From assembly GCA_020440705.1 (NCBI GenBank), contig JAGRNP010000001.1:51787-115786 (forward strand): 64,000 nucleotides of DNA. The letters run 5' to 3'. Below the pieces are notes generated by a model. The model saw only the letters and a list, made by a program, of their open reading frames with translations. It was not told the origin of the DNA and did not search any database. Positions 7,592 to 59,100 of this stretch are shown here, piece after piece (position 1 is the first letter of the stretch; the number at the start of each line of letters is the position of its first letter). The stretch comes from a bacterium. Lineage in GTDB: Bacteria > Krumholzibacteriota > Krumholzibacteriia > LZORAL124-64-63. Made by a program: the position numbers and the translations under genes.

Positions 7592-8788
7592 TCAGATGGC
7601 GCCGTGCTTCTTCCCCACCTTGGCGAAGGCCTCTAGGCAGCGGGTGACGTGGTCGTCGGTGTGGGCGGCCGAGGCCTGCAGCCGGATCCGGGCCTGGCCC
7701 CGCGGCACCACCGGGAAGCTGAACCCGATGCAGTAGATGCCCTCGCCGAGCAGGTCGGCGGCCATGCCCTGGGCCATGATCGCGTCGTCGTCGTGCCGGC
7801 GGAAGTGCACCGGGATGATGGCGTGGTCGCCTTCGTCGACGTCGAAGCCCAACTCCCGCAATCCGTTGCGCAGACGCTGCTGGTTGTGCGCCAGCGTCCT
7901 GAGGGGCGTCGGATCTTCCCGCAGGATCTTCAGCACCTCCAGCGCCGCCCCGCAGATCATCATGGGCAGGGAGTTGCTGAACAGGTAGGGCCGGCTCTTC
8001 TGGCGCAGCCACTCGACGATCTCGCGCCGGCCGCTCGTGCAGCCGCCGAGGGCCCCGCCGAGGGCCTTGCCGAAGGTGGTCGTGATGACATCGACGCGGT
8101 CCATGACGCCGAACTTCTCGTGGGTCCCCCGGCCGGTCGCGCCGGTGAATCCGGTGGCATGGCTCTCGTCGACCATGACCATGGCCTCGTATTTTTCGGC
8201 CAGATCACAGATCTCCGGCAGCTTGGCCAGGTGGCCGTCCATGGAGAAGACACCGTCGGTGACGATCATGCGGAAGGCCGCGTCGCTGGCCGCCCGGAGC
8301 TGCTCCTCCAGGTGGTCCATGTCGCTGTGGTTGTAGATGTAGCGCTGCGCCTTGGCCAGCCGCACGCCGTCGATGATCGAGGCGTGGTTGAGCTGGTCGG
8401 TGATGATGGCGCTGTCCTTCTCGAGCAGGGGCTCGAACACGCCGCCGTTGGCGTCGAAGCAGGCGGCGTAGAGGATGGTGTCCTCGGTGCCCAGGAAGGC
8501 GCTCATCTCGGCCTCGAGCTGCTTGTGCAGGGTCGTGGTGCCGCAGATGAACCGCACCGAGCTGAGACCGTAGCCCCAGGTGTCGAGGGCGCGCCGGGCG
8601 GCCGCGGTCACGCGGGGATCCGAGGCCAGGCCCAGGTAGTTGTTGGCGCAGAAGTTCAGCACCTTGCGGCCGCCGACCTGGATCTCCGCCCCCTGGGGCC
8701 CCTCGAGCACGCGCTCTTCCTTGTAGAGTCCCTGTTCGCGGATGGCGTCCAGTTCGCCCCGCAGCACCTCGCCGAATCTGCCGTACAT
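7592..8788 (-). CDS. kbl: Glycine C-acetyltransferase / 2-amino-3-ketobutyrate CoA ligase (class II aminotransferase, AONS family)
   Basis: This is the real 398-aa part of the chimeric 783-aa [63 protein letters not shown]...[10 protein letters not shown]...TFGKALGG is co-linear with E. coli Kbl. GGGAGG RBS. Confidence 0.88.
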
Positions 8789-12609: not shown

Positions 12610-12963
12610 TGGTGGAGGCGGCGGGAATCGAACCCGCGTCCGTAACCGGTTCCCCGGCGACATCTACATGCTTAGCCGCTTGTTGTTTAACCCGGGAAGA
12701 GGCCCAGCGGCCCGCCGCTTCAGGGGCTAGCCTCACTTTTGTTTCGCCCCGCGACCAGAGGCCTGACGCGGAACTATCCACCGTAAATGGCGCCCCTTGG
12801 CGGCGGTACGGTGGCCCCCCACCGCCGGGACGGGCAGCTTAACTAAGCCGCCAGTGCGAAGTTGTTTTCGTCACTTAATTGGTTTCCACCCGTTTAACGA
12901 GACTGGCGGGATCTCGGCATGCAGTCCCCGGTCCCCCGACCACGTCGAAACCAGGTCGCCCCC
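12610..12963 (-). ncRNA. ssrA: tmRNA (SsrA), one-piece form
   Basis: The minus-strand 5' end is GGGGGCGACCTGGTTTCGACG... and the 3' end is ...GCGGGTTCGATTCCCGCCGCCTCCACCA. The acceptor stem has a G3:U70 pair (tRNA-Ala identity). The internal ORF AGT GAC GAA AAC AAC TTC GCA CTG GCG GCT TAG encodes a tag ending ...DENNFALAA-stop. Confidence 0.85.
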
Positions 12964-18618: not shown

Positions 18619-19980
18619 CTAGACCACGCCCTGGTCCAGCATCGAGTCGGCGACCTTCAGGAAGCCGGCGATGTTGGCGCCGTTGACGTAGTTGCCCGGC
18701 GTGCCGAACTCGTTGGCGGCCGCCATGCTCGCTGCGTGGATGCTCTTCATGATGCCGTGCAGTTTCTGATCGACCTCTTCGCGGGTCCAGTTGTAGCGCA
18801 TGCTGTTCTGCGACATCTCCAGGCCGGAGACCGCCACGCCGCCGGCGTTGGCGGCCTTGCCCGGACCGTAGAGGATCTTCGCGTCGACGAAGTGGTTCAC
18901 GCCGTCGGGAACCGTCGGCATGTTCGCGCCCTCGCTGACGACGTAGACGCCGTTGCGCAGCAGGTTCTTGGCGTCCTGCTCGTTGATCTCGTTCTGGGTC
19001 GCCGAGGGGAACGCGCAGTCGGCCTTGTGGTCCCACAGGGGATTGTGGTCCATGCCCGGATCGACGGCGGTGTAGACGGCGCCGGGGAACTTGTCGGCGT
19101 ACTCCTTCACGCGGCCGCGCCTGACGTTCTTCAGATCCATCAGGAAGGCCAGCTTCTCGCGCGTGAAGCCCGCCTCGTCCAGGATGTAGCCGCCGCTGTC
19201 CGAGCAGGTGATCGGCTTGGCGCCCAGGTCGAGCAGCTTCTCGATGGTGTACTGGGCCACGTTGCCGGAGCCCGAGACCAGGGCGGTCTTGCCCTCGAGG
19301 GTCTCGTTGCGCGTACCCAGCATCTCGGCCGCGAAGTACACGGCGCCGTAGCCGGTGGCCTCGGGCCGGATGAGGCTGCCGCCCCAGTTCAGGCCCTTGC
19401 CCGTCAGCACGCCCACGAACTCGTTGCGCAGCTTCTTGTACTGGCCGAAGAGGAAGCCGATCTCCCGGCCGCCGACGCCGATGTCGCCCGCCGGGACGTC
19501 GGTGTTGCCGCCGATGTGGCGGAAGAGCTCGCTCATGAAGCTCTGGGTGAAACGCATGACTTCGAGGTCGCTCTTGCCCTTGGGGTCGAAGTCCGAACCG
19601 CCCTTGCCGCCGCCCATGGGCAGCGTCGTCAGGCTGTTCTTGAAGACCTGCTCGAAGGCCAGGAACTTGAGGATGCCCAGGTTCACGCTCGGATGGAAAC
19701 GCAGGCCGCCCTTGTAGGGGCCGATGGCGCTGTTCATCTCGATCCGGAAGCCCTTGTTGACCTGGACCTCGCCCTTGTCGTCCACCCAGGGGACACGGAA
19801 CAGGATGACACGCTCGGGCTCGACGATGCGCTCCAGGATCTTGGCCTTGCGGTACTCCGGACGCTTGTCCAGCACCGGCCAGATGGATTCGACGACCTCT
19901 TCGACCGCCTGGTGGAACTCCACTTCCGCAGGGTTCTTGGCGATGACGTTTTCCATGAAGGCAGCAACGTTCTGGGCCAT
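18619..19980 (-). CDS. gdhA: NADP-specific glutamate dehydrogenase (hexameric 50-kDa class)
   Basis: 453 aa, MAQNVAAFMENVIAKNPAEVEFHQAVEEVVESIWPVLDKRPEYRKAKILERIVEPERVILFRVPWVDDKGEVQVNKGFRIEMNSAIGPYKGGLRFHPSVNLGILKFLAFEQVFKNSLTTLPMGGGKGGSDFDPKGKSDLEVMRF... matches E. coli GdhA along its full length. Confidence 0.92.
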   Translation of the reverse strand: MAQNVAAFMENVIAKNPAEVEFHQAVEEVVESIWPVLDKRPEYRKAKILERIVEPERVILFRVPWVDDKGEVQVNKGFRIEMNSAIGPYKGGLRFHPSVNLGILKFLAFEQVFKNSLTTLPMGGGKGGSDFDPKGKSDLEVMRFTQSFMSELFRHIGGNTDVPAGDIGVGGREIGFLFGQYKKLRNEFVGVLTGKGLNWGGSLIRPEATGYGAVYFAAEMLGTRNETLEGKTALVSGSGNVAQYTIEKLLDLGAKPITCSDSGGYILDEAGFTREKLAFLMDLKNVRRGRVKEYADKFPGAVYTAVDPGMDHNPLWDHKADCAFPSATQNEINEQDAKNLLRNGVYVVSEGANMPTVPDGVNHFVDAKILYGPGKAANAGGVAVSGLEMSQNSMRYNWTREEVDQKLHGIMKSIHAASMAAANEFGTPGNYVNGANIAGFLKVADSMLDQGVV

Positions 19981-20360
19981 TTCGACTCTCCTTTGGTAGT
20001 TGGCATCGTCCGAATCCGAAGCAGCGCCTGGGCGACCCGGGGCGACTCCCGAAACCGTTTGGAAAACATGGAAACCTGTTTATCCGTTGGCAAGGATTTT
20101 CGCCCCCCGGTGTCGGAAATTGTTGCCTCAAAAACGGTTAATCCGGTTCGGTATTTCAAGTACTTGGCGCGCACATTATTGCACAAATGTGTTCAAAACC
20201 GGCGCCGGGCCCTGCCGCAGGGTCGCCAGGCGCCGTGCCGGCGTCCGGCCGCGGGGCGGGCGATCGGGTCGGCGACGGGCTTGCCATGGGCCGGCGGAAT
20301 GGGCAGTATGGCGGTGGGAATCGTCCCACCGCACCCGAAGAGACGGGAAGGAGAAAGACG

Positions 20361-43757: not shown

Positions 43758-45791
43758 TTGTCCCCCAGCCCCCATTTCGACGGCCGACTCGGCGCGCGGC
43801 CCGTACCCGGCGGCGTCCGCTTCGCCCTCGACGCGGCCCCCGGGGGCGGCGCCCGCCTGCTCCTGTTTCCCGACGCCGACGCCGCGCTCCCCGACCGGGT
43901 GATCGAGCTCGATCCGCAGCGCGACCGCCACGGCCGCGTCTGGAGCGTCGTGGTGCCCGACGCCGGCCCGGGTCAGTGCTACAACTGGGTGCTGACCCCG
44001 CCCGGTGCCGTCGCGCGGCCCGTGCAGGCTCTCCTGGACCCCCGCGGACTGGGTGTCGCCGGCTGGAACCGCTACGACCGGCAGGCCCTGCGCAAGCTGC
44101 CGGACAACACCCCGGTCGCCCTGCGCAGCGTGGTCCTCGATCCCGACGCCTACGACTGGGGCGACGACGCCCCCCCGCGGACCGTCGGCCGTGAGTTCAT
44201 CTACGAGGTGCACGCCGCGGCCTTCACCGCCGATCCCTCGAGCGGGCTGGCGCCCGACCTGCGCGGCACCTACGCCGGCCTGGCCGCGCGGGCCGACCAC
44301 CTGGTCGAGTTGGGCGTCACGGCCGTCGAGCTGCTGCCGGTCGCCGCCTACGACCCGCTCGACGCCCCCGCGGGCCGCCGCAACTACTGGGGCTACAGCC
44401 CGCTGTCGTGGTTCGCGCCGCATCCCCTCTACGCCCGCGATCCGGACCCCGCCCGCGTGCTCGACGAGTTCCGCGACATGGTGCGCGCCCTGCACGCCGC
44501 GGGCCTGAAGGTCTACGTCGACGTCGTCTACAACCACACCGCCGAGGCGGGCGCCGACGGCCCCGAACTCAGTTGGCGGGGCTGCGACGAGGACGGCTAC
44601 TACCTGCGCGACGCCGCGACCGGCCGCTACCGCGACTACACCGGCTGCGGCAACACGATCAGCGCGAACCACCCGGTCGGACGGCGGCTCATCCTCGACT
44701 CGCTGCGTTGGTGGGTGCGCCACCTGCACGTCGACGGTTTCCGCTTCGACCTCGGCGCGACCCACGTGCGCGACGTGGACGGCGCGCCGCTCGCCCGGCC
44801 GCCCCTCATCGGAGCCATGGAGGCCGATCCCGTCCTCGCCGACACGCGCCTGATCGCCGAGCCCTGGGACACCGGCGGCCTGCACCTGGTGGGCGACTTC
44901 CCCGGCGACCGCTTCGCCGTGTGGAACGGCCCGTTCCGCGACGCGGCGCGGCGCTTCCTGAAGGGCGACGCCGGCGTCATCGAGGAACTCATGGCCCGCA
45001 TCGTCGGCAGCCCCGACCTGCTCGGCCGCCCCGGCGCCACCGCCGCGGACACCATCAACTTCGTGACCTGCCACGACGGCTTCACCCTGCACGACCTCGT
45101 GTCCTACGAGCGGAAGCACAACGAGGCCAACGGCGAAGCCAACCGCGACGGCTCCGACGCCAACCTCAGCTGGAACGGCGGCGTCGAGGGCCCGAGCGAC
45201 GATCCGGAACTGATGGCCCTGCGCGAGCGTCGGGTGCGCAACTTCCTCGTGCTGCTCTTCCTTTCCCACGGCGTGCCCATGCTCTGCGGCGGCGACGAGT
45301 GGGGGCAGACCAGACGGGGCAACAACAACCCCTGGTGCCAGGACAACGACCTCAACTGGCACGACTGGAGCCTCGCCCGCACCAACGCCGGACTCGTCGC
45401 CTTCACCCGCCGCCTCGCCCGGCTCGCCAACCACCATCCGGTCCTGGCGCGCCGCCGGTTCTGGTCCGCCACCGGTCCCGGCCACACCGGCGACATCGCC
45501 TGGCACGGCCGCGAGCCGGGCCGGCCCGACTGGTCGCCCACCTCGCGTCATCTGGCCTGGGAGATCGTCGAGCCCACCGGTGGCGCCCACCTGCTGGTGG
45601 CCATGAACTCCGAGCCCGGACCCACGACCTTCCACCTGCCCGCGCCTCCGGCCGGGAAGCGCTGGCTGCGGCTGGTCGACACGGCCGACGCGGCGGCCGG
45701 CGGCTGGTGCGAACCGGCCTGCCCCGAACCGGCCGCGGCCGCGGTGGCGGTCGCCACGCACGGGGTCATGGTCTGGCTTGCGCAGAGCTAA
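43758..45791 (+). CDS. glgX: Glycogen debranching enzyme GlgX (isoamylase, GH13)
   Basis: A TTG start preceded by GAAGGAG (7-nt spacer) gives LSPSPHFDGRLGARPVPGGVRFAL... The alternative is the ATG at 43713 (M65 of the track ORF). ...YWGYSP...VYVDVVYNHTAE...GFRFDLG...EPWD...FVTCHDGFTLHDLVSY.... Confidence 0.85.
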   Translation: MSPSPHFDGRLGARPVPGGVRFALDAAPGGGARLLLFPDADAALPDRVIELDPQRDRHGRVWSVVVPDAGPGQCYNWVLTPPGAVARPVQALLDPRGLGVAGWNRYDRQALRKLPDNTPVALRSVVLDPDAYDWGDDAPPRTVGREFIYEVHAAAFTADPSSGLAPDLRGTYAGLAARADHLVELGVTAVELLPVAAYDPLDAPAGRRNYWGYSPLSWFAPHPLYARDPDPARVLDEFRDMVRALHAAGLKVYVDVVYNHTAEAGADGPELSWRGCDEDGYYLRDAATGRYRDYTGCGNTISANHPVGRRLILDSLRWWVRHLHVDGFRFDLGATHVRDVDGAPLARPPLIGAMEADPVLADTRLIAEPWDTGGLHLVGDFPGDRFAVWNGPFRDAARRFLKGDAGVIEELMARIVGSPDLLGRPGATAADTINFVTCHDGFTLHDLVSYERKHNEANGEANRDGSDANLSWNGGVEGPSDDPELMALRERRVRNFLVLLFLSHGVPMLCGGDEWGQTRRGNNNPWCQDNDLNWHDWSLARTNAGLVAFTRRLARLANHHPVLARRRFWSATGPGHTGDIAWHGREPGRPDWSPTSRHLAWEIVEPTGGAHLLVAMNSEPGPTTFHLPAPPAGKRWLRLVDTADAAAGGWCEPACPEPAAAAVAVATHGVMVWLAQS

Positions 45792-46062
45792 ATGGTTGGA
45801 AAATTGCGGTATTGATGGCACCAGGGCGCCAAAATTTGCAGCACCTGGATCATTTTTCCTGCAACTTGGCTAATATTTCTTTCCAAACGTCAGAGATTCT
45901 GATACTGTCTCCCGCGTTGCAGTTCCGGGGAGGCTAATCCCGAATCCTGCGTCAGAATCGACATCCGTGACCGACAACTCGCTGCCTCATCTCGCCGATT
46001 CGCCCAGCCTCCCCCACTGCACACCCGGCCCGGTGCCCGCATCGGACGGAGACTGCAACGAG

Positions 46063-46097
46063 AAAAGCCGCCCCCTTCGCCCGGGGCGGCTTTTTTT
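46063..46097. terminator. Bidirectional intrinsic terminator (A-run, GC stem, T-run)
   Basis: AGAAAA GCCGCCCC cttcgccc GGGGCGGC TTTTTTT. It lies 45 nt after the tamB stop on the minus strand, and at the right end of a low-GC intergenic island on the plus strand. Confidence 0.65.
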
Positions 46098-46141
46098 GGC
46101 GACTCGACTATTTGCGACTCGCTTTTTTGCGTCTCGGCCTT

Positions 46142-49100
46142 CTAGTAGCGCTTGCTCCAGCGCAGTTCCAGTCCCGAGTCCTCCTCACCCTGCCCGTAGG
46201 TCGAGACCAGCTTGAAGATCCGCGTCAGGGCGTACTCCATGGTCAGGAAGTAGGTGCCGCTCTTCTCGAGACTGTGGTTGTACTTGAGGATCAGGTTCGG
46301 CGCGATGAACTTGCCGACCATGAGGGTGCTGTCGCCCTCGGATCCCGAACCGACCTCGACCATGTCCACGCCGAAGGTCTCCGAGACCGAGTTCTGCAGT
46401 CCCGCGGTGCCGAAGACCATGGCCAGGGCCGCCATGTTCTGTCGCAGCTGCTGGCCGGCGTCGCCCTCCTGGCGCACGCCGCCGCGCTGGTCGGTGTCGA
46501 GCTCGTTCATGGGCCGACCGAAGAGCAGCACCGCCACGATGTCCTGCTCCTCGTACTCGGGCTCGGAGCTCAGCGTCACCTGGGGATCCGCCGCCGTCCC
46601 GGTCACCGCGATCCGCACGAGGGTGCCCGAGACGTCGGCCTCGAGCAACATGTCGAGCACCGGATCGGCGGGCACCGCGCCGTGGAAACCGATGTCCCCC
46701 CGCTCGACGCGGAAGACCCGGTTCATGAACTGCAGGGTGCCTTCGACGGCCCGCACGTCGCCGACGATCCGGGGCTGGGGACGGCCGTCCTCGTCGTGAC
46801 CGCGGTCGACCTGCAGGTCACCCGCGAGCTCGACGTCCAGCCCGTAGCCGTGGACGCGGAAGTTGCCCGGAATGGTCACCTTCAGGTCGAGGTCAGGCAG
46901 CACGGCCGGTCCCTTGGCTTCCAGCACGGGTCCCTTCGCCTCGGGCCGCACGAAGACCGCGACCGTGTCCGCCGCCGCCGCTCCCGAGTCGGCCGCCGCC
47001 AGCGCCCACAGCGCCGGCTGCCCCTCGGTCGGATGCAGCGCCTTCGGGAGCTCCGGAATGCGGAAGAACGCCGACGGCACTTCGATCGTCCCGCTCACGC
47101 GCGGGTCGGCCAGCGGCCCCGCAAGCGCGATGTCCGTGCGGAGCTCCAGCCGCGATCGGTACGGCAGCCGGATCTCGAGCTTCGGCGTGGCGAGGCGACC
47201 GTCCACGGTCCCCGTCAACCGGGGGGCCTGTTCCGTCGCCAGCGAGTCCGCCCCGGCCCCATCGCCGCCGTTCGCGACGCCGACCACGGCCGTGGCGGCC
47301 ACCGTGAACAGGCCGGACAGGGACACATCGTCGGGCAGCAGCCGGTTCAACCGGGACAGGCCGAGCTGCTGCTCGGGCACGTCGAGCCGGGTGGGGCGAT
47401 CGGGGTCCATGAGCCAGCGCCCGGTCTGCGGGTCGAGCCGCCCGGGCACGACCAGCCGCGCCGCCAGTCCGGCGGTGTCGGCCGAGACGATCGCCATGTC
47501 GGCCACGACGCCGGCCGAGTCGCCCGCAGCCAGGGAGAACGTCAGGTCGGCCCCCAGGTTGGGCTCGTCCCGGTGGGGCACCAGGCGCACCTGGGCGTCG
47601 CCCGCGAGTTCGGGCGACCGGCGCGTTCCCGACACGGCGAGCGACGCGTCCACGGTCACGTCGCGGCCGCCGTCCGCCGACCAGAACTCCGCCGGGGCCA
47701 GGCGCTGCAGGAGCGCCTCGGGCAGATCCAGATCGACCAGGGCGGTCAGGGCCAGGGTGTCGCTCCGGGCGCGCGCCGTCAGTTCCACCAGACCCGGTTC
47801 GCCCGTGAGCGCCAGGGTGGACACGTCCAGGTCGCCCGGCTGCGGTCCGTGCACGACGCGCACGGGCTCCCGCAGCCGGATGCGGTGGTCGCCGTCGGCC
47901 ACGACGAGGCTGTCCAGGCTGAGGGTCCGCACCGGCGCGAGACCCAGCGAATCGACATGGGCCGAGCCGGCGGTCTGGGCGCGCAGGGCCCCCGACCAGA
48001 CGCCGACGGCGAAGTCGGCCCGCAGGGAATCGCCGGCGCTGCGGGCCACGTCCAGGCCGACGTCCAGGCTGTCGAGGCGGGTCTCGCCCCAGGCCAGCCC
48101 TTCGGGCAGATGCAGTTCGAGCCGGCCGCCATCCCGCGTGCCCCGGGCCGCCAGCCGCAGGGCGGGCAGACTCGCCTCGTCAGTGCGGAACCGCCCTTCG
48201 CCCTGCAACGACACCGTCGGATCGAACAGCGTGCCGGCGGCCGCGAGCCCCACCCGCAGGGAGACGGTCCCGGAATCGACCCGGGCCGCCGCGCGGGGCG
48301 CCAGGATCTCCGCCAGGCGGGTCCCCTCGAGACCGGCCACGAGATCGAAGTCCAGGGTGTCGGCGACGAAGCGGCCCGCCGCCGCGATGCTGGCCCCCTG
48401 CCAGGCCAGGGCGAGGGTGTCCAGCTGCACGACCGCCGAACGGCGGTCGCCGGCCATGACCTGCTCCACGTCGGCCCGGCTGGATGCCACGAGCCGACCC
48501 GCCTCGAGCCAATCGGTCGCCCCGAGATCGAGATCGACATCCACGGCGATCAGGGGTCGGGCCACGTCGGCATCGACGCGCAGCCGCCCGTGCAGGCGGC
48601 CGAACTCCTCGGCGGGGAACCCGGCGGGCAGGAGCACGGCCACGTCGGCCGGCCCGGGCAGCACGAAGTCGCTGACCAGGTGCCCGGCCAGTCCGGCCGC
48701 GGTCCGCTCGAGGCGGCCGGTGTTGTGCAGCTGCAGCGGGCGCCGGGTCCGCAAGCCTCCCGCACCGCTCTCCGGCGACGGCGCGCCCACCGCGCCGACG
48801 TGGTCGAATTGCACGTTCAGGCTGTCGAGCCGCGCGGCAACGAGGCCCTCGTCGCCACCCGCGTCCGACAGCGAGAGCCCCACGCCCAGGTGGCCGAGCA
48901 CGATCTCCCAGGCTTCCCCGGTGACGCTGTCGAGCAGGGCGCTGCGGAAGGTGCCGCCCAGGTGCCGCACGCGGAGGCGCCCCTCGTGTCCCGCGCCCGC
49001 CTCGACCTCGGTCCGCAGCACGACGTTCCGCACCTGCTCGGTGGGCGTGAGCCGCGCCCGGCCGAGGGCGAATCGCCCGTCGCCGAGGGCCAGCGAGGGC

Positions 49101-51591: not shown

Positions 51592-52752
51592 ATGAGCGAC
51601 TCGCCGATCTATCTCGACTACAACGCCACCACGCCGCCGGATCCCCGCGTGGCCGACGCCATGGCGCCCTTCCTCAGGGAGCCCTTCGGCAACCCCAGCA
51701 GCGGTCACGCCTGGGGCCGGCGCGCCCGCGCGGCCGTCGAAGGCGCGCGCGCCAGGGTCGCGGCCCTGCTGCAGGCCGACCCGGCGGGAGTCGTCTTCAC
51801 CGGTGGCGGCACCGAAGCGGACAACCACGCGCTGATCGGCGCGGCCCGGTTGCGCGCACCCCGGGGCGGCCACCTGGTCACCACGGCCGTCGAGCATCCC
51901 GCCATCACGGCCGCCTGCCGCCACCTGGCCGACTTCGGCGTCGAGACGACATACGTCGGCGTGGACGACCAGGGTCGCGTCGACCCGGCCGCGGTCGCCG
52001 CCGCATGCCGCCCCGACACCTTCCTGGTGTCGGTGATGCTGGCCAACAACGAGGTGGGCACCCTGCAGCCCGTGGCCGAGATCGCGGCCCTCGCCCGCGC
52101 CCGCGGGATCCTCTCCCACACCGACTGCGCCCAGGCCGTCGGCAAGGTCCCCGTCGGGCTCGACGATCTCGGCGTCGACATGATCTCTCTCGCGGGCCAC
52201 AAGCTGTACGGGCCGAAAGGGGTCGGGGCGCTCGTGCTGCGTTCCGGGGTCGCGGTGGCGAACCTCATGTTCGGCGCCGGCCACGAGCAGGGCCGTCGCC
52301 CCGGCACCGAGAACGTGCTGGCGATCGTGGGGCTGGGGGTCGCCTGCGAGCTCGCCGCCGACGACGTGGCATCGGAAGGACACCGCCTGGCCAACCTGCG
52401 CGATCGCCTGGCGACCATCATCACCGCGGGGCAGCCCGACGCCGTGGTCCATGCCGCCCGCGCGCCCCGTCTGCCGAACACGCTCAGCGTCGGCTTTCCC
52501 GCCCGCATCGCCGGCGAGATCATGGCGCGGCTGCCCGACGTGGCGGTGTCGGCCGGGGCGGCGTGCCACGGGGACGCGATCCATGTCTCCCACGTGCTCC
52601 AGGCCATGGGCGTGCCGCGCGACGTGGCGGTGGGGACGCTGCGCCTCTCCCTCGGCCGCATGACGACGGCCGCGGAAATCGAGGCCGCCGGGGCGCGGAT
52701 CGTCGCCGCCGCGGCGGCCACTCCCCGGGTCGGGACGGGGGATTCCGTCTAG
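51592..52752 (+). CDS. Cysteine desulfurase (IscS/NifS class V aminotransferase)
   Basis: AAGGAAG RBS. MSDSPIYLDYNATTPPDPRVADAMAPFLREPFGNPSSGHAWGRRA...SLAGHKLYGPKGVGAL...AGAACH... (PLP Lys in SLAGHK, catalytic Cys in AGAACH). Confidence 0.9.
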   Translation: MSDSPIYLDYNATTPPDPRVADAMAPFLREPFGNPSSGHAWGRRARAAVEGARARVAALLQADPAGVVFTGGGTEADNHALIGAARLRAPRGGHLVTTAVEHPAITAACRHLADFGVETTYVGVDDQGRVDPAAVAAACRPDTFLVSVMLANNEVGTLQPVAEIAALARARGILSHTDCAQAVGKVPVGLDDLGVDMISLAGHKLYGPKGVGALVLRSGVAVANLMFGAGHEQGRRPGTENVLAIVGLGVACELAADDVASEGHRLANLRDRLATIITAGQPDAVVHAARAPRLPNTLSVGFPARIAGEIMARLPDVAVSAGAACHGDAIHVSHVLQAMGVPRDVAVGTLRLSLGRMTTAAEIEAAGARIVAAAAATPRVGTGDSV

Positions 52753-53204
52753 GAGAGATCCTCGAGCGGAGCCAGCACCTGCAGCTGCTTCTGCATGGTC
52801 GGGCAGGGGTTCTCTTCGGAGAGCAGCTCGGCGAGCGTGGTCCCGGCGAACGCCTCCTGCACATGGGCCATGGCCTGATCGAGGCGGCGGTGCAGCGGAC
52901 ACAGGGCCGAGCTGTGGGCTTCGAGATCGAGGGGACACGATTCGATGCGCTGGATGGGGCTGACCGCGTTCATGATGTCGAGCATGCAGATCTCGGCCGG
53001 ATCCCGGGCCAGCACGAAGCCGCCGTTCAGGCCGCGGGTCGAGTAGACGAGCCGGCCCCGCACCAGCGACTGCAGCACCTTCGAGAGGTAGCTCTGCGGC
53101 ACCTTCATCATCGCGGCGATGGACTTGGTGGTCATCGGCGAGCCGTCGCCGGCGGCCAGGGCGAGGACCGCGCGCATGGCGTATTCGATGGTCAGAGAGA
53201 ACAC
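52749..53204 (-). CDS. Rrf2-family transcriptional regulator (IscR-like, with a Cys cluster)
   Basis: 151 aa, MFSLTIEYAMRAVLALAAGDGSPMTTKSIAAMMKVPQSYLSKVLQSLVRGRLVYSTRGLNGGFVLARDPAEI... with C-x-C-x-C/H residues further on. Confidence 0.8.
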   Translation of the reverse strand: MFSLTIEYAMRAVLALAAGDGSPMTTKSIAAMMKVPQSYLSKVLQSLVRGRLVYSTRGLNGGFVLARDPAEICMLDIMNAVSPIQRIESCPLDLEAHSSALCPLHRRLDQAMAHVQEAFAGTTLAELLSEENPCPTMQKQLQVLAPLEDLS

Positions 53205-56128: not shown

Positions 56129-59100
56129 GTCGTCACCTCCTCGGCTGCGGCCAGGCCGCGGCAGGCGGCGAGCACCTTGCCGATCGTGGCCGGCTTCTCG
56201 ACGAGGGCGTCGGCCGAGGCGATCTCGCCCGCCCGCTCGGACGGCACCATCGCGACCAGGCGCAGCAGGGGCGCGCCGCTGCAGGCACGCAGCTTCTGCA
56301 GCAGGTTCTCGCCGCGCGGCGAATCCGGCGCCCCGCCGGAGCACCAGGGATTGACCAGCACCACGGTGGGCGCCCGCAGGCTCGCGACGATGCCGAGCAG
56401 GTCCGACACCCGGCGCACGACTTCGGGACCGTGCCCCACCGAGACCAGTTCATCGCCCAGCCGGTAGATGGTCCGCATCTCGTCGTCGGCCAGGATGAGG
56501 TTCCAGCCGGCCAGGACGGACGGGTCCTGCACCGGCGACGCCGCCTGCACCTCGGGCTCCGGGGTGACCCAGTCGGCCACGTCGGTGCGGGCCGGCGGCG
56601 ACGACGCGACCTCCTCGCCCCCGACGCGCATGCGCAAAGGCAGATAGAGCGTGAACTTGCTGCCCTTGCCCTCGACGCTCGTCAGCTCGAGGCGCCCCTG
56701 CAGCAGCTCGGTCAGGCGGCGCGAGATCGACAGGCCGAGGCCCGACCCCCCGTAGCGTCGCCCGATCGTTCCGTCGCCCTGGTTGAAGGCCTCGAACACG
56801 CGGCGGCAGACCTCCTCGTTCATGCCGATGCCGGTGTCGGCCACCGAGAACGCGACGCACGGGTTCTGCATGCCGCCGCCCAGGCTGGCCACTTCGTCCT
56901 GGGAGGGCGTGCGCACGCGCAGGGCCACCGAGCCCTTGTCCGTGAACTTGCAGGCGTTGCTCAGCAGGTTCTTCAGGATCTGCTTGACCCGCAGCCCGTC
57001 GGTGAAGATCGCGTCGGGCACACCCGGCCCCCGGTAGGAACGGTATTCGATGCCCTTGCGGTCGGTGACCGGGTGGAAGAGCTGGTTGAGGTCGGACAGC
57101 AGGCTGTCGACCGCCACCTCGGTGGGCGAGAGTTCGAGTTTGCCGGCCTCGACCTTCGACAGGTCGAGGATGTCGTCGATGATGGTCATCAGTTCCTCGC
57201 CCGCCTGGTGGATCGTGCCGGCGGCCTCGACCTCGGAGCGGTCGAGCCGACCGGCCTTGTTCTCCCCCAGCACCTGCGCCATGAGCAGCATGCTGTTCAG
57301 CGGCGTCCGCAGTTCGTGGGACATGTTGGCCAGGAACTCGCTCTTGTAGCGGTCGGAGCGGGCCAGACGCTCGTTCTTGTCCTGCAGCTCCTTCTGCTGC
57401 CGCGAGAGCGTGCCCGCCTGCCGACGCGTCTCCTCGAGCAGCCGGTGCACCCGCTCGCGCGACCGCGACGAATCCAACGCGACGGCGACCGACTCGGCCG
57501 AAAGGCGCAGGAACTCGAGATCGTCGTCGCTCACCGCATCGAAGGTCGCCAGTTCGAGGATGCCCTTGATCTGGCCCGCGAGGTGGAACGGCGCCACGAT
57601 GAGGTGACGGGGCGCCGATTCGCCCATGGCGCTGCGGATCAGGATGTGCTCCGACGGCACGTCGCTCAGCACCTGGATGCGCCGCCGCATGGCCGCGCGC
57701 CCCACCACGCCCTGGCCCTCGCGCAGGCGCCGCACCGGCCAGTGGTCGTCCGATTCGCCGTAGTGGGCCACGAGCACCAGGCTCTGGCCCGGACGCGCCA
57801 GGTAGAAGGCGCCGGCCTGGGCGTTGTAGTAGTCGCCGATGTGTTCGAGGATCGCCGCGGCGAGGGTCTCGGTGTCCGGTTCGCCCCGCATGCGTTCGTT
57901 CAGTTCGGCCTGCTGTTCCTGGAGGCGGAACTGCCGGTCGCGGGTGCGCTTGGCCTCGTCGAGATGGTCGATCATCTTGGCGAAACTCGCAGCCAGACCG
58001 GCCACCTCGTCATCGCCGACGACGTCCAGGTCCGGAACCTCGTGACCGTCCGCCACGCGGTTCATCATGTGCCCCAGGGCCGTGATGGGCTGCAGCATGC
58101 GCTGGGCGATGATCTGGCCCACGATGGCGGCGGCGGCACCGGTCGCGATGATGATCAGCAGCATCGCGAGCTTGATGCGGGCCAGTCCGGCAAGGGCCTC
58201 GGACGCCGGCAGTTCGGTGATGAGGCCGAAGCGGCGGCCCAGGGCCTCGACGGTGACGCCGTAGCCGAAGACCTGGCGGTCGGTCGCGCCGAGATAGCTC
58301 GTCAGGTCGCCCGCCTTGCGGGGCGGATCGGTGGCGGCCCCCATGCGGCCTTCGAAAGCGGCCTTCTGGCTGTCCAGCCAGGCCGTGGTGACGTCGTTCA
58401 GCAGCCGGTCACGCAGGGGTTCGAGGTCGCTGTCATCGTGGCTGCTCAGCAGGAGGCGCAGGTTGTCGTCGACCAGGTAGATCCGCACCGTCGCCCCTTC
58501 GGGCAGGGCGCGGGCCATCTGGGTGCCGAGCTCGCGCCCGTCGATCTGGAAGGCGAGGAAGCCCTCCGGGTCCGGCTCGGGCCCGTACACGGGCACGACG
58601 AGGAAGGCCGATTCGAGGCCCGCGCTCGGCTCGTAGGGGCCGAAGTCGGACAACACGATGCCGCCGGTGACGGCCGCCTCGCGCACCGCCGACGCGAGGA
58701 TCGAGCGCGTGTACGTGCCGGTCAGGACGTTGCTGCCGAGATCGTCCTCGCGGGCGCAGCTGAAGAGCACGAGCCCCTCGGCGTCGAGCAGCAGGATGTC
58801 GTACCACGGCGAGGAATTGCGGAAGCGGACGAGTTCGTGACCCTCCTGCTGGGCGAGCGCCTCCCACGAGGCCCCGCCGATCCAGCTGCGGGCGTTCTGG
58901 CCGCTGGCCTGCAGATCGGCTTCCAGAAGTTCCAGGAAGGCGAGGTTCGAGCGCAAACGGCTCTGGTGGTCGAGCTCGCGGCGCGCCCGGTCGAAGAAGG
59001 CGTGCACGGTCTCCTTGCCGGCCGTGGCCGATCCCATCAGGGCGTCGCGGATGGCCTTGTGCTGGGATCGGCGCGCGCTCGTGTAGCCGATGGATCCGGC

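Follow-up and report, generated by a model that had tools for sequence, protein, structure and literature searches.

The window, a 64,000-nucleotide stretch of bacterial DNA, carries the convergent genes glgX and tamB. Their ends, at 45791 and 46142, leave between them a gap of 350 bp (45792-46141), which is where the original prediction had placed it. The GlgX protein of the window is 100% identical to an NCBI GlgX protein labeled ‘[bacterium]’ (P0001). The gap is AT-richer than its surroundings, as had been noted from the letters. Its mean GC content of 0.563 against a window mean of 0.70 is nevertheless higher than the ~50% proposed, and the dip is limited to 45792-45914 (0.447), with a value of 0.645 for 45915-46097. 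The 200-bp stretch at 45765-45964 (GC 0.49) is the lowest in GC of all 64 kb. The AT-rich part looks like an upstream or promoter region, and the putative RNA itself is GC-richer. The second lowest GC in the window is found at 19981-20210 (0.515 at 19997-20196). This stretch resembles an ordinary 5′ promoter region of the minus-strand gene starting at 19980, which has the Shine–Dalgarno sequence GGAGAG, and it contains an inverted repeat, CACAT-N10-ATGTG, at ~20174-20193. The features of the locus are listed in Table 1.

Table 1. Coordinates of genes, sequence elements and predicted RNA segments at the glgX-tamB gap and downstream of it.
Feature	Position	Strand	Sequence, basis or remark
glgX	stop side ends 45791	+	Pfam, NCBIfam TIGR02100 GlgX
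AT-rich stretch, putative promoter/upstream region	45792-45914	+	GC 0.447; composition
TGGTTGGAAAAT box directly after the glgX stop	45793-45804	+	19-spacer alignment
Inverted repeat	45889-45903	+	GTCAGA-N3-TCTGAT; overlaps the -10 box
Putative extended -10 element	45900-45908	+	TGaTACTGT (TGnTAnnnT); conserved in family
Predicted small RNA, ~183 nt	45915-46097	+	5′ end predicted from the -10 element; 3′ end at terminator U-run
P1 5′ strand	45915-45923	+	CGUUGCAGU; alternative 3′ partners
P2 5′ strand	45927-45934	+	GGGGAGGC; pairs with 46007-46014
P3 5′ strand	45941-45946	+	CGAAUC; pairs with 45997-46002 (GAUUCG)
Apical region, ~50 nt	45947-45996	+	G-poor, weakly structured; conservation, ensemble folds
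P3 3′ strand plus unpaired CCC	45997-46005	+	GAUUCGCCC; invariant in 22/22
P2 3′ strand	46007-46014	+	GCCUCCCC; pairs with 45927-45934
Small hairpin	46030-46045	+	CCGGUG-CCCG-CAUCGG; window-specific, no counterpart in relatives
Intrinsic terminator	46063-46097	+	12-bp stem, loop CUUCGCCC, U7
Tail to tamB stop	46098-46141		GCGACTCG twice; outside conserved element
tamB stop codon	46142-46144	-	PF04357
NifS/IscS-like cysteine desulfurase	51604-52680	+	beyond tamB
Rrf2-family regulator	52773-53204	-	convergent with desulfurase, beyond tamB

The same element lies right after glgX in 21 related metagenomic contigs, most of them labeled Krumholzibacteria, whose GlgX proteins are 51-65% identical to that of the window. 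In a protein search, the nearest GlgX proteins are metagenomic and 55-65% identical, several of them being labeled Krumholzibacteria or Krumholzibacteriota. A scan of genome contigs with the C-terminal half of GlgX yielded, among the matches listed, proteins of other phyla at 43-53% identity. These distant loci are uninformative for synteny and were reused as negative controls. The contigs of the GlgX homologues share the gene order of the window, a PilZ/hypothetical/DAG-kinase operon on the minus strand followed by glgX on the plus strand. All of them have a gap of 200-400 bp 3′ of glgX, and these gaps align in blocks. The most conserved block supplied the pattern CTCGCC-N0-2-GATTCGCCC-N1-3-YCTYCCC for a scan of metagenome contigs. 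This returned 25 matches, 11 of which are the same element at 10 distinct loci (L110 is a duplicate of L090). The remaining 14 fall in GC-rich coding DNA and seem to be due to chance. The family thus has 22 members: the window, eight loci obtained through close GlgX homologues (a ninth, L084, duplicates L083 and is not counted), ten from the pattern scan and three held-out loci. By tblastn, glgX is directly upstream of the element wherever the contig extends that far.

A covariance model built from 19 members recovered the held-out loci L115, L116 and L117 with E-values of 3e-12, 1e-11 and 3e-6, all three after glgX. Its match in the window covers 45915-46026 (83.4 bits). The model finds no second copy in the 64 kb, and no match beside 80 glgX loci from other phyla (~0.7 Mb). 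A search of the whole window against Rfam 15 at the gathering threshold finds only the tmRNA at 12610-12963, and places no family on the gap, for which such a search had been suggested. That tmRNA gene lies on the minus strand (184.7 bits) and has the tag peptide DENNFALAA according to ARAGORN. At E <= 10, the Rfam scan of 45300-46700 gives only sub-threshold matches that are driven by the terminator. The best of these, Thr_leader (RF00506), RefA9, isrK and ncS54, reach 13-26 bits against gathering thresholds of 43-55. They align only with the terminator hairpin and U-run, leave the core uncovered and are not reproduced in seven other family members, in which Rfam has nothing on the core. Literature searches found no description of this glgX-adjacent RNA. 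Judged from sequence and predicted structure, the element is a conserved, previously undescribed family of putative small RNAs, restricted to a Krumholzibacteria-type lineage.

The segment 45915-46097 folds with -81.3 kcal/mol (z = -4.2). Plus-strand folds give z-scores of -4.2 to -5.2, against -2.7 for the minus strand. The core common to all members is 85-98 nt in length (~88 nt) and always lies directly 3′ of glgX on the plus strand, with the helices P2 and P3 closing the G-poor apical region of ~50 nt. Across the 22 sequences, 98.9% of the cells of P2 are paired, with double changes in four of the eight pairs. P3 is 99.2% paired and varies only by G.U pairs on its 5′ strand. None of 500 shuffles matches the observed pairing or covariation of P2/P3, and in controls with slid partners the pairing falls to 37-66%. 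RNAalifold on a MAFFT alignment recovered these two helices only. Fifteen G.U cells in P2/P3 would be A.C mismatches on the minus strand, which indicates that the plus strand is the RNA strand. The held-out L115, L116 and L117 add the compensatory pairs GGGGGGGC/GCCCCCCC and GGGGAA/UUCCCC. Nucleotide conservation is 0.73 in the core, compared with 0.65 in the adjacent glgX coding sequence and 0.58 in the upstream spacer. The conservation of both sequence and structure is found on one strand and is non-coding.

The 5′ strand of P1 has two possible partners, CUGCA at 46017-46021 and ACUGCAACG at 46052-46060, the latter giving 9 bp. P1 occurs with different sequences in L081, L082, L083, L086, L089 and L087/L108, and is absent in the L088 group. 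Its 3′ partner is duplicated both in the window (CUGCA and ACUGCAACG) and in L081 (GUCUGC at 8288-8293 and GUCUGG at ~8309-8314). This creates two alternative closing helices ~25-35 nt apart.

The CCC that follows P3 has an unpaired probability of ~0.8 in the ensemble fold. It forms the 3′ side of the internal loop between P2 and P3 and shows no variation; the 5′ side varies. The apical region carries the CA.C motifs ACAUC (45961-45965) and ACAAC (45974-45978), and CAUCUCGCC at 45988-45996 presents a CA.CUCGCC pattern just 5′ of the P3 3′ strand. L115, L116 and L117 show that CUCGCC is not universal in the family. Ensemble folds predict that the invariant C-rich positions are mostly unpaired. 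When folded under constraints, the apical region yields weak structures (-2 to -9 kcal/mol) that are not consistent from one member to another. A candidate apical hairpin, P4 (GUCA/UGAC, 45951-45954/45968-45971), is 64% paired when modeled, and its complementarity is no better than that of shuffles (Fisher p = 0.105). P4 may exist, and is put forward tentatively. A relationship to 6S RNA was considered and rejected. The 6S RNA is a rod of ~180 nt in which long helices flank a large bubble at the center; here Rfam gives no match, including to its 6S and 6S-Flavo models, and an 88-nt core consists of two short helices closing a 50-nt loop.

The gap ends in a strong terminator, just as the original prediction described it. 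The GC-rich stem, the short loop and the U-run of an intrinsic terminator are all present. The inverted repeat is perfect over 12 bp (46063-46074/46083-46094) with a loop of 8 nt, and the T7 run at 46091-46097 comes directly after the stem. The terminator folds with -29.7 kcal/mol (z = -4.4). The hairpin starts 272 nt past the glgX stop, in agreement with the ~270 nt that had been given. Its description as bidirectional is plausible but weaker on the minus strand, where the tail consists of just UUUUCUCGUU (U4CUCGUU) and escaped the terminator scan. The loop repeats the internal UUCGCCC motif of the RNA. The loop (U)UCGCCCGG is kept, with a covarying stem, in the window, L081, L082, L083, L085, L086, L089, L099 and L115. 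A hairpin plus U-run is found 3′ of the core in ~17 of the 22 members, the stems differing freely. In several members there is also a U-run directly 3′ of the P2 3′ strand: L090 (10582-10600, CCCCGCUCUUUUUUUUU), L097 (3369-3375), L098 (5567-5575), L091 and L092. With it, the closed core could serve as an early, weak terminator that precedes the canonical hairpin.

Between the terminator and tamB, the tail at 46098-46141 has a fold z-score of -1.07 and is unalignable in relatives. The short direct repeats reported for the gap do exist, as GCGACTCG occurs at 46099 and again at 46114. They are not a meaningful feature, since the window shows no excess of this 8-mer (5 copies against 10 expected) and the tail is not conserved.

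The stretch upstream of the RNA, 45792-45914, is not significantly structured (z = -0.96), and no terminator was predicted in it by the terminator scan. It contains the sequence TGaTACTGT, which fits an extended -10 element. The TAnnnT part is found 9-19 nt upstream of P2 in 19/19 members, and the TG one base before it in 15 of the 19; L116 has TGtTAGCAT at this box. By our calculation, TGnTAnnnT would be expected by chance within an 11-nt span of 45%-GC DNA in ~1-2% of sequences. Its recurrence against this figure argues for a conserved extended -10 box, and for a start near 45915. A simple sigma-70 scan called no full promoter upstream of the RNA, and misses the box because no good -35 element is present. 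Readings of the upstream sequence as sigma-54 or sigma-E-like promoters were dropped by eye, as the spacings do not fit.

Two other elements recur in the upstream stretch. In the alignment of 19 spacers, a TTGRAA-like sequence is seen just after the glgX stop in most family members. The TGGTTGRAAAT / TGAAAT box recurs across clades (L082, L083, L086, L088, L089, L097, L105 and others), and fits no consistent -35/-10 spacing. In most members an inverted repeat, TCAG-N5-CTGA, extends into the -10 box. At the same place, L081 (8153-8168) has CCAGA...TCTGG, in which both arms are changed. The repeat at 45889-45903 is possibly, and speculatively, an operator or a small hairpin.

The genes that follow the element differ among the members. 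Twelve of them, the window included, have a convergent tamB. In L085 a NifS/IscS-like cysteine desulfurase gene comes 70 nt after the terminator. L091, L092, L116 and L117 have a NifS/IscS-like gene with no terminator in between, its start codon being 15-60 nt past the core (leader-type loci). The element is followed by a convergent Rrf2 regulator in L087/L108 and by a Patatin-Omp85 gene in L115, and the contigs of L088 and L098 run out shortly past the RNA. The desulfurase and Rrf2 genes of the window lie beyond tamB, and every gene order seen has this pair downstream of the RNA. In a rough GlgX tree, all RNA-bearing loci belong to a single clade, over which the leader-type loci are dispersed. 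One of these, L116 (GCA_019038745.1, JAHOYV010000081.1), is labeled Gemmatimonadales in NCBI and has the gene order PilZ/glgX/RNA/NifS-like/Rrf2. Its GlgX falls among those of the Krumholzibacteria-type clade. Unless the label is doubtful, the element reaches beyond the class Krumholzibacteria.

Where a convergent tamB comes right after the terminator, there is nothing to regulate in cis. For the window copy only two roles come into question, as a small terminated transcript and as the end of the glgX mRNA, and it may fill both. The reading we favor, to which we would give an even chance, is that a lineage-specific, small structured RNA acting in trans is encoded in the gap. Transcription would start near 45915, from the putative extended -10 element in the AT-rich stretch. 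No terminator was found between the glgX stop and the RNA, so read-through from glgX probably enters the RNA and ends at the same terminator. Both transcripts would stop at the U7 terminator (46097), the shorter of them giving an RNA of ~183 nt. This layout would be that of a 3′ UTR-embedded small RNA with its own promoter, and the element may be both the glgX 3′ UTR and an independently promoted small RNA. The candidate small RNA ending at the terminator, as first proposed from the sequence, gains support from the conserved plus-strand structure with a -10 box upstream.

Within such an RNA, P2 and P3 would present a C-rich binding surface. The unpaired positions that may contact a partner are the CA.C motifs, CAUCUCGCC, the CCC near GAUUCG and the UUCGCCC of the terminator loop. 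The partner could be a protein that binds RNA, or target mRNAs through their G-rich segments. Since these invariant, unpaired positions have no partner inside the RNA, they argue for recognition by another molecule. Complementarity scans of local sequence, in the window and 18 member loci, gave no recurrent target site. The invariant 20-mer led to one perfect complement of 13 nt, GGGCGAAUCGGCG, to the invariant CGCCGAUUCGCCC of the RNA, at 57613-57625 on the minus strand. It lies in coding sequence for a GAF domain rather than at a start codon, and it is probably due to chance (~0.01 matches expected per 13-mer). TTCGCCCRG occurs 11 times in the window, where 2.6 copies are expected; the surplus was rejected as RNA motifs, being in-frame Phe-Ala-Arg/Gln codons. 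No Hfq gene is found in the 64-kb window. Counting against a simple base-pairing small RNA are the near-invariant strands of P2 and P3 and the constant core length of 85-98 nt. These traits are more typical of ligand- or protein-binding RNAs. The trans reading also has against it that the core of L091, L092, L116 and L117 would act in cis.

These four loci belong to the case for the chief rival, itself unlikely, namely that the core is a cis leader, riboswitch-like or protein-binding, of the NifS/IscS-like gene, and that the window copy has been orphaned or repurposed by the tamB block. They run from promoter through core to the start of an Aminotran_5/NifS-like gene without an intrinsic terminator, and in L085 the same type of gene follows core and terminator. 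The constant core length, conserved junction nucleotides and near-invariant helices are aptamer-like, and the recurrent desulfurase-Rrf2 pair downstream would suit such a leader. The core is equally conserved, however, in the 12 members that have a convergent tamB after the terminator. It occupies a 5′ UTR only in the four leader-type loci and not in the window. Manual inspection found no conserved antiterminator or anti-Shine–Dalgarno pairing of the core with terminators or ribosome binding sites, the stems varying freely, and no Rfam riboswitch was matched. The scatter of leader-type loci on the rough GlgX tree would fit a tamB block that was lost repeatedly. The element could instead be only the 3′ UTR of glgX, which stabilizes or processes the mRNA and terminates both genes, with neither promoter nor trans role of its own. 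Its link to the glgX 3′ end in 22/22 members, whatever follows, would agree with this, as would the terminator-free run from glgX stop to core and the missing canonical -35 element. The TAnnnT box, mostly with TG, is nonetheless kept near P2 amid a poorly conserved AT-rich stretch, and in the leader-type loci it is the only plausible promoter for the downstream gene. Nor does a protective structure need an invariant single-stranded sequence of 9-17 nt, and we regard the 3′ UTR alone as decidedly unlikely.

A special case of the trans reading is that the RNA is a decoy that titrates a CsrA-like carbon-storage regulator. The element adjoins a glycogen gene and has repeated short motifs (three CA.C and two UUCGCCC), within which GGAC is seen in many members. 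Krumholzibacteriota do encode CsrA homologues, mostly predicted to be non-canonical (PMC13443453). The glycogen link is positional only, though, the GGA hairpin-loop architecture of CsrB/RsmZ is absent, and the 64-kb window has no csrA gene. The apical regions of the window, L098 and L092 lack GGA altogether. As the window core is without GGA motifs, a decoy is very unlikely. Least credible of all, and extremely improbable, is a view of the gap as what is left of foreign or mobile DNA, or as a small gene that encodes a protein. The low GC content relative to background had suggested a foreign remnant or insertion to the original prediction, and stop-free stretches of 50-80 codons do overlap the core. 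Comparison of orthologous glgX-tamB regions speaks against an insertion, as the same spacer and element are found at the same syntenic site after glgX in the 21 relatives, with no flanking repeats and no mobility genes. A coding gene was rejected: Pfam finds nothing for the ORFs of the gap, indels of 0-2 nt inside the most conserved block break the frame, runs of nine invariant nucleotides lack third-position variation, and L090 has no stop-free frame across the core.

The arrangement proposed for the trans-acting RNA has counterparts in other bacteria. DapZ after dapB and MicL within cutC, in enterobacteria, are type I 3′ UTR-embedded small RNAs with their own promoter. Like these, the present element comes directly after a same-strand protein gene, has a putative promoter of its own near the stop codon and shares an intrinsic terminator. 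There is no similarity in sequence or structure, and the phylum is a different, uncultured one. The core is also far more structured and sequence-constrained, and for it a seed/terminator layout of the Hfq type would be hypothetical. The SreA and SreB transcripts of Listeria derive from SAM riboswitches and work in cis and in trans. The present family resembles them in that one folded module is used for a short transcript ending at a terminator and also, in some of the genomes, for a 5′ leader. Unlike SreA/SreB, it has no Rfam 15 riboswitch match, and no switchable expression platform was detected. With the CsrB/RsmZ sponges it has in common a small size, repeated short exposed motifs and a position near carbon-storage genes. 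Its motifs are C-rich (CA.C, UUCGCCC) and number only 3-5, in contrast to the GGA in hairpin loops of those RNAs.

The Krumholzibacteria are uncultured and known only from metagenomes, and to our knowledge almost nothing is known of their RNA regulators. What is gained here is a concrete RNA gene with defined boundaries, a covariance model, 22 members and a 9-nt signature, GAUUCGCCC. For annotation, a conspicuous AT-rich ‘island’ is explained as a putative promoter plus RNA gene instead of foreign DNA. The element has two genomic contexts, as a standalone RNA and as the leader of a cysteine desulfurase gene. A doubtful but wider reading is that the 88-nt core is a new sensing or protein-binding module, which serves as the desulfurase 5′ leader in some Krumholzibacteria and as a terminated small RNA in most, including the window. 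If this is true, a cis regulator would here have been converted in nature into an RNA acting in trans, perhaps with a link to Fe-S/sulfur or glycogen metabolism. Such a dual use, if real, would illustrate how a folded module of RNA can switch between acting in cis and acting in trans.
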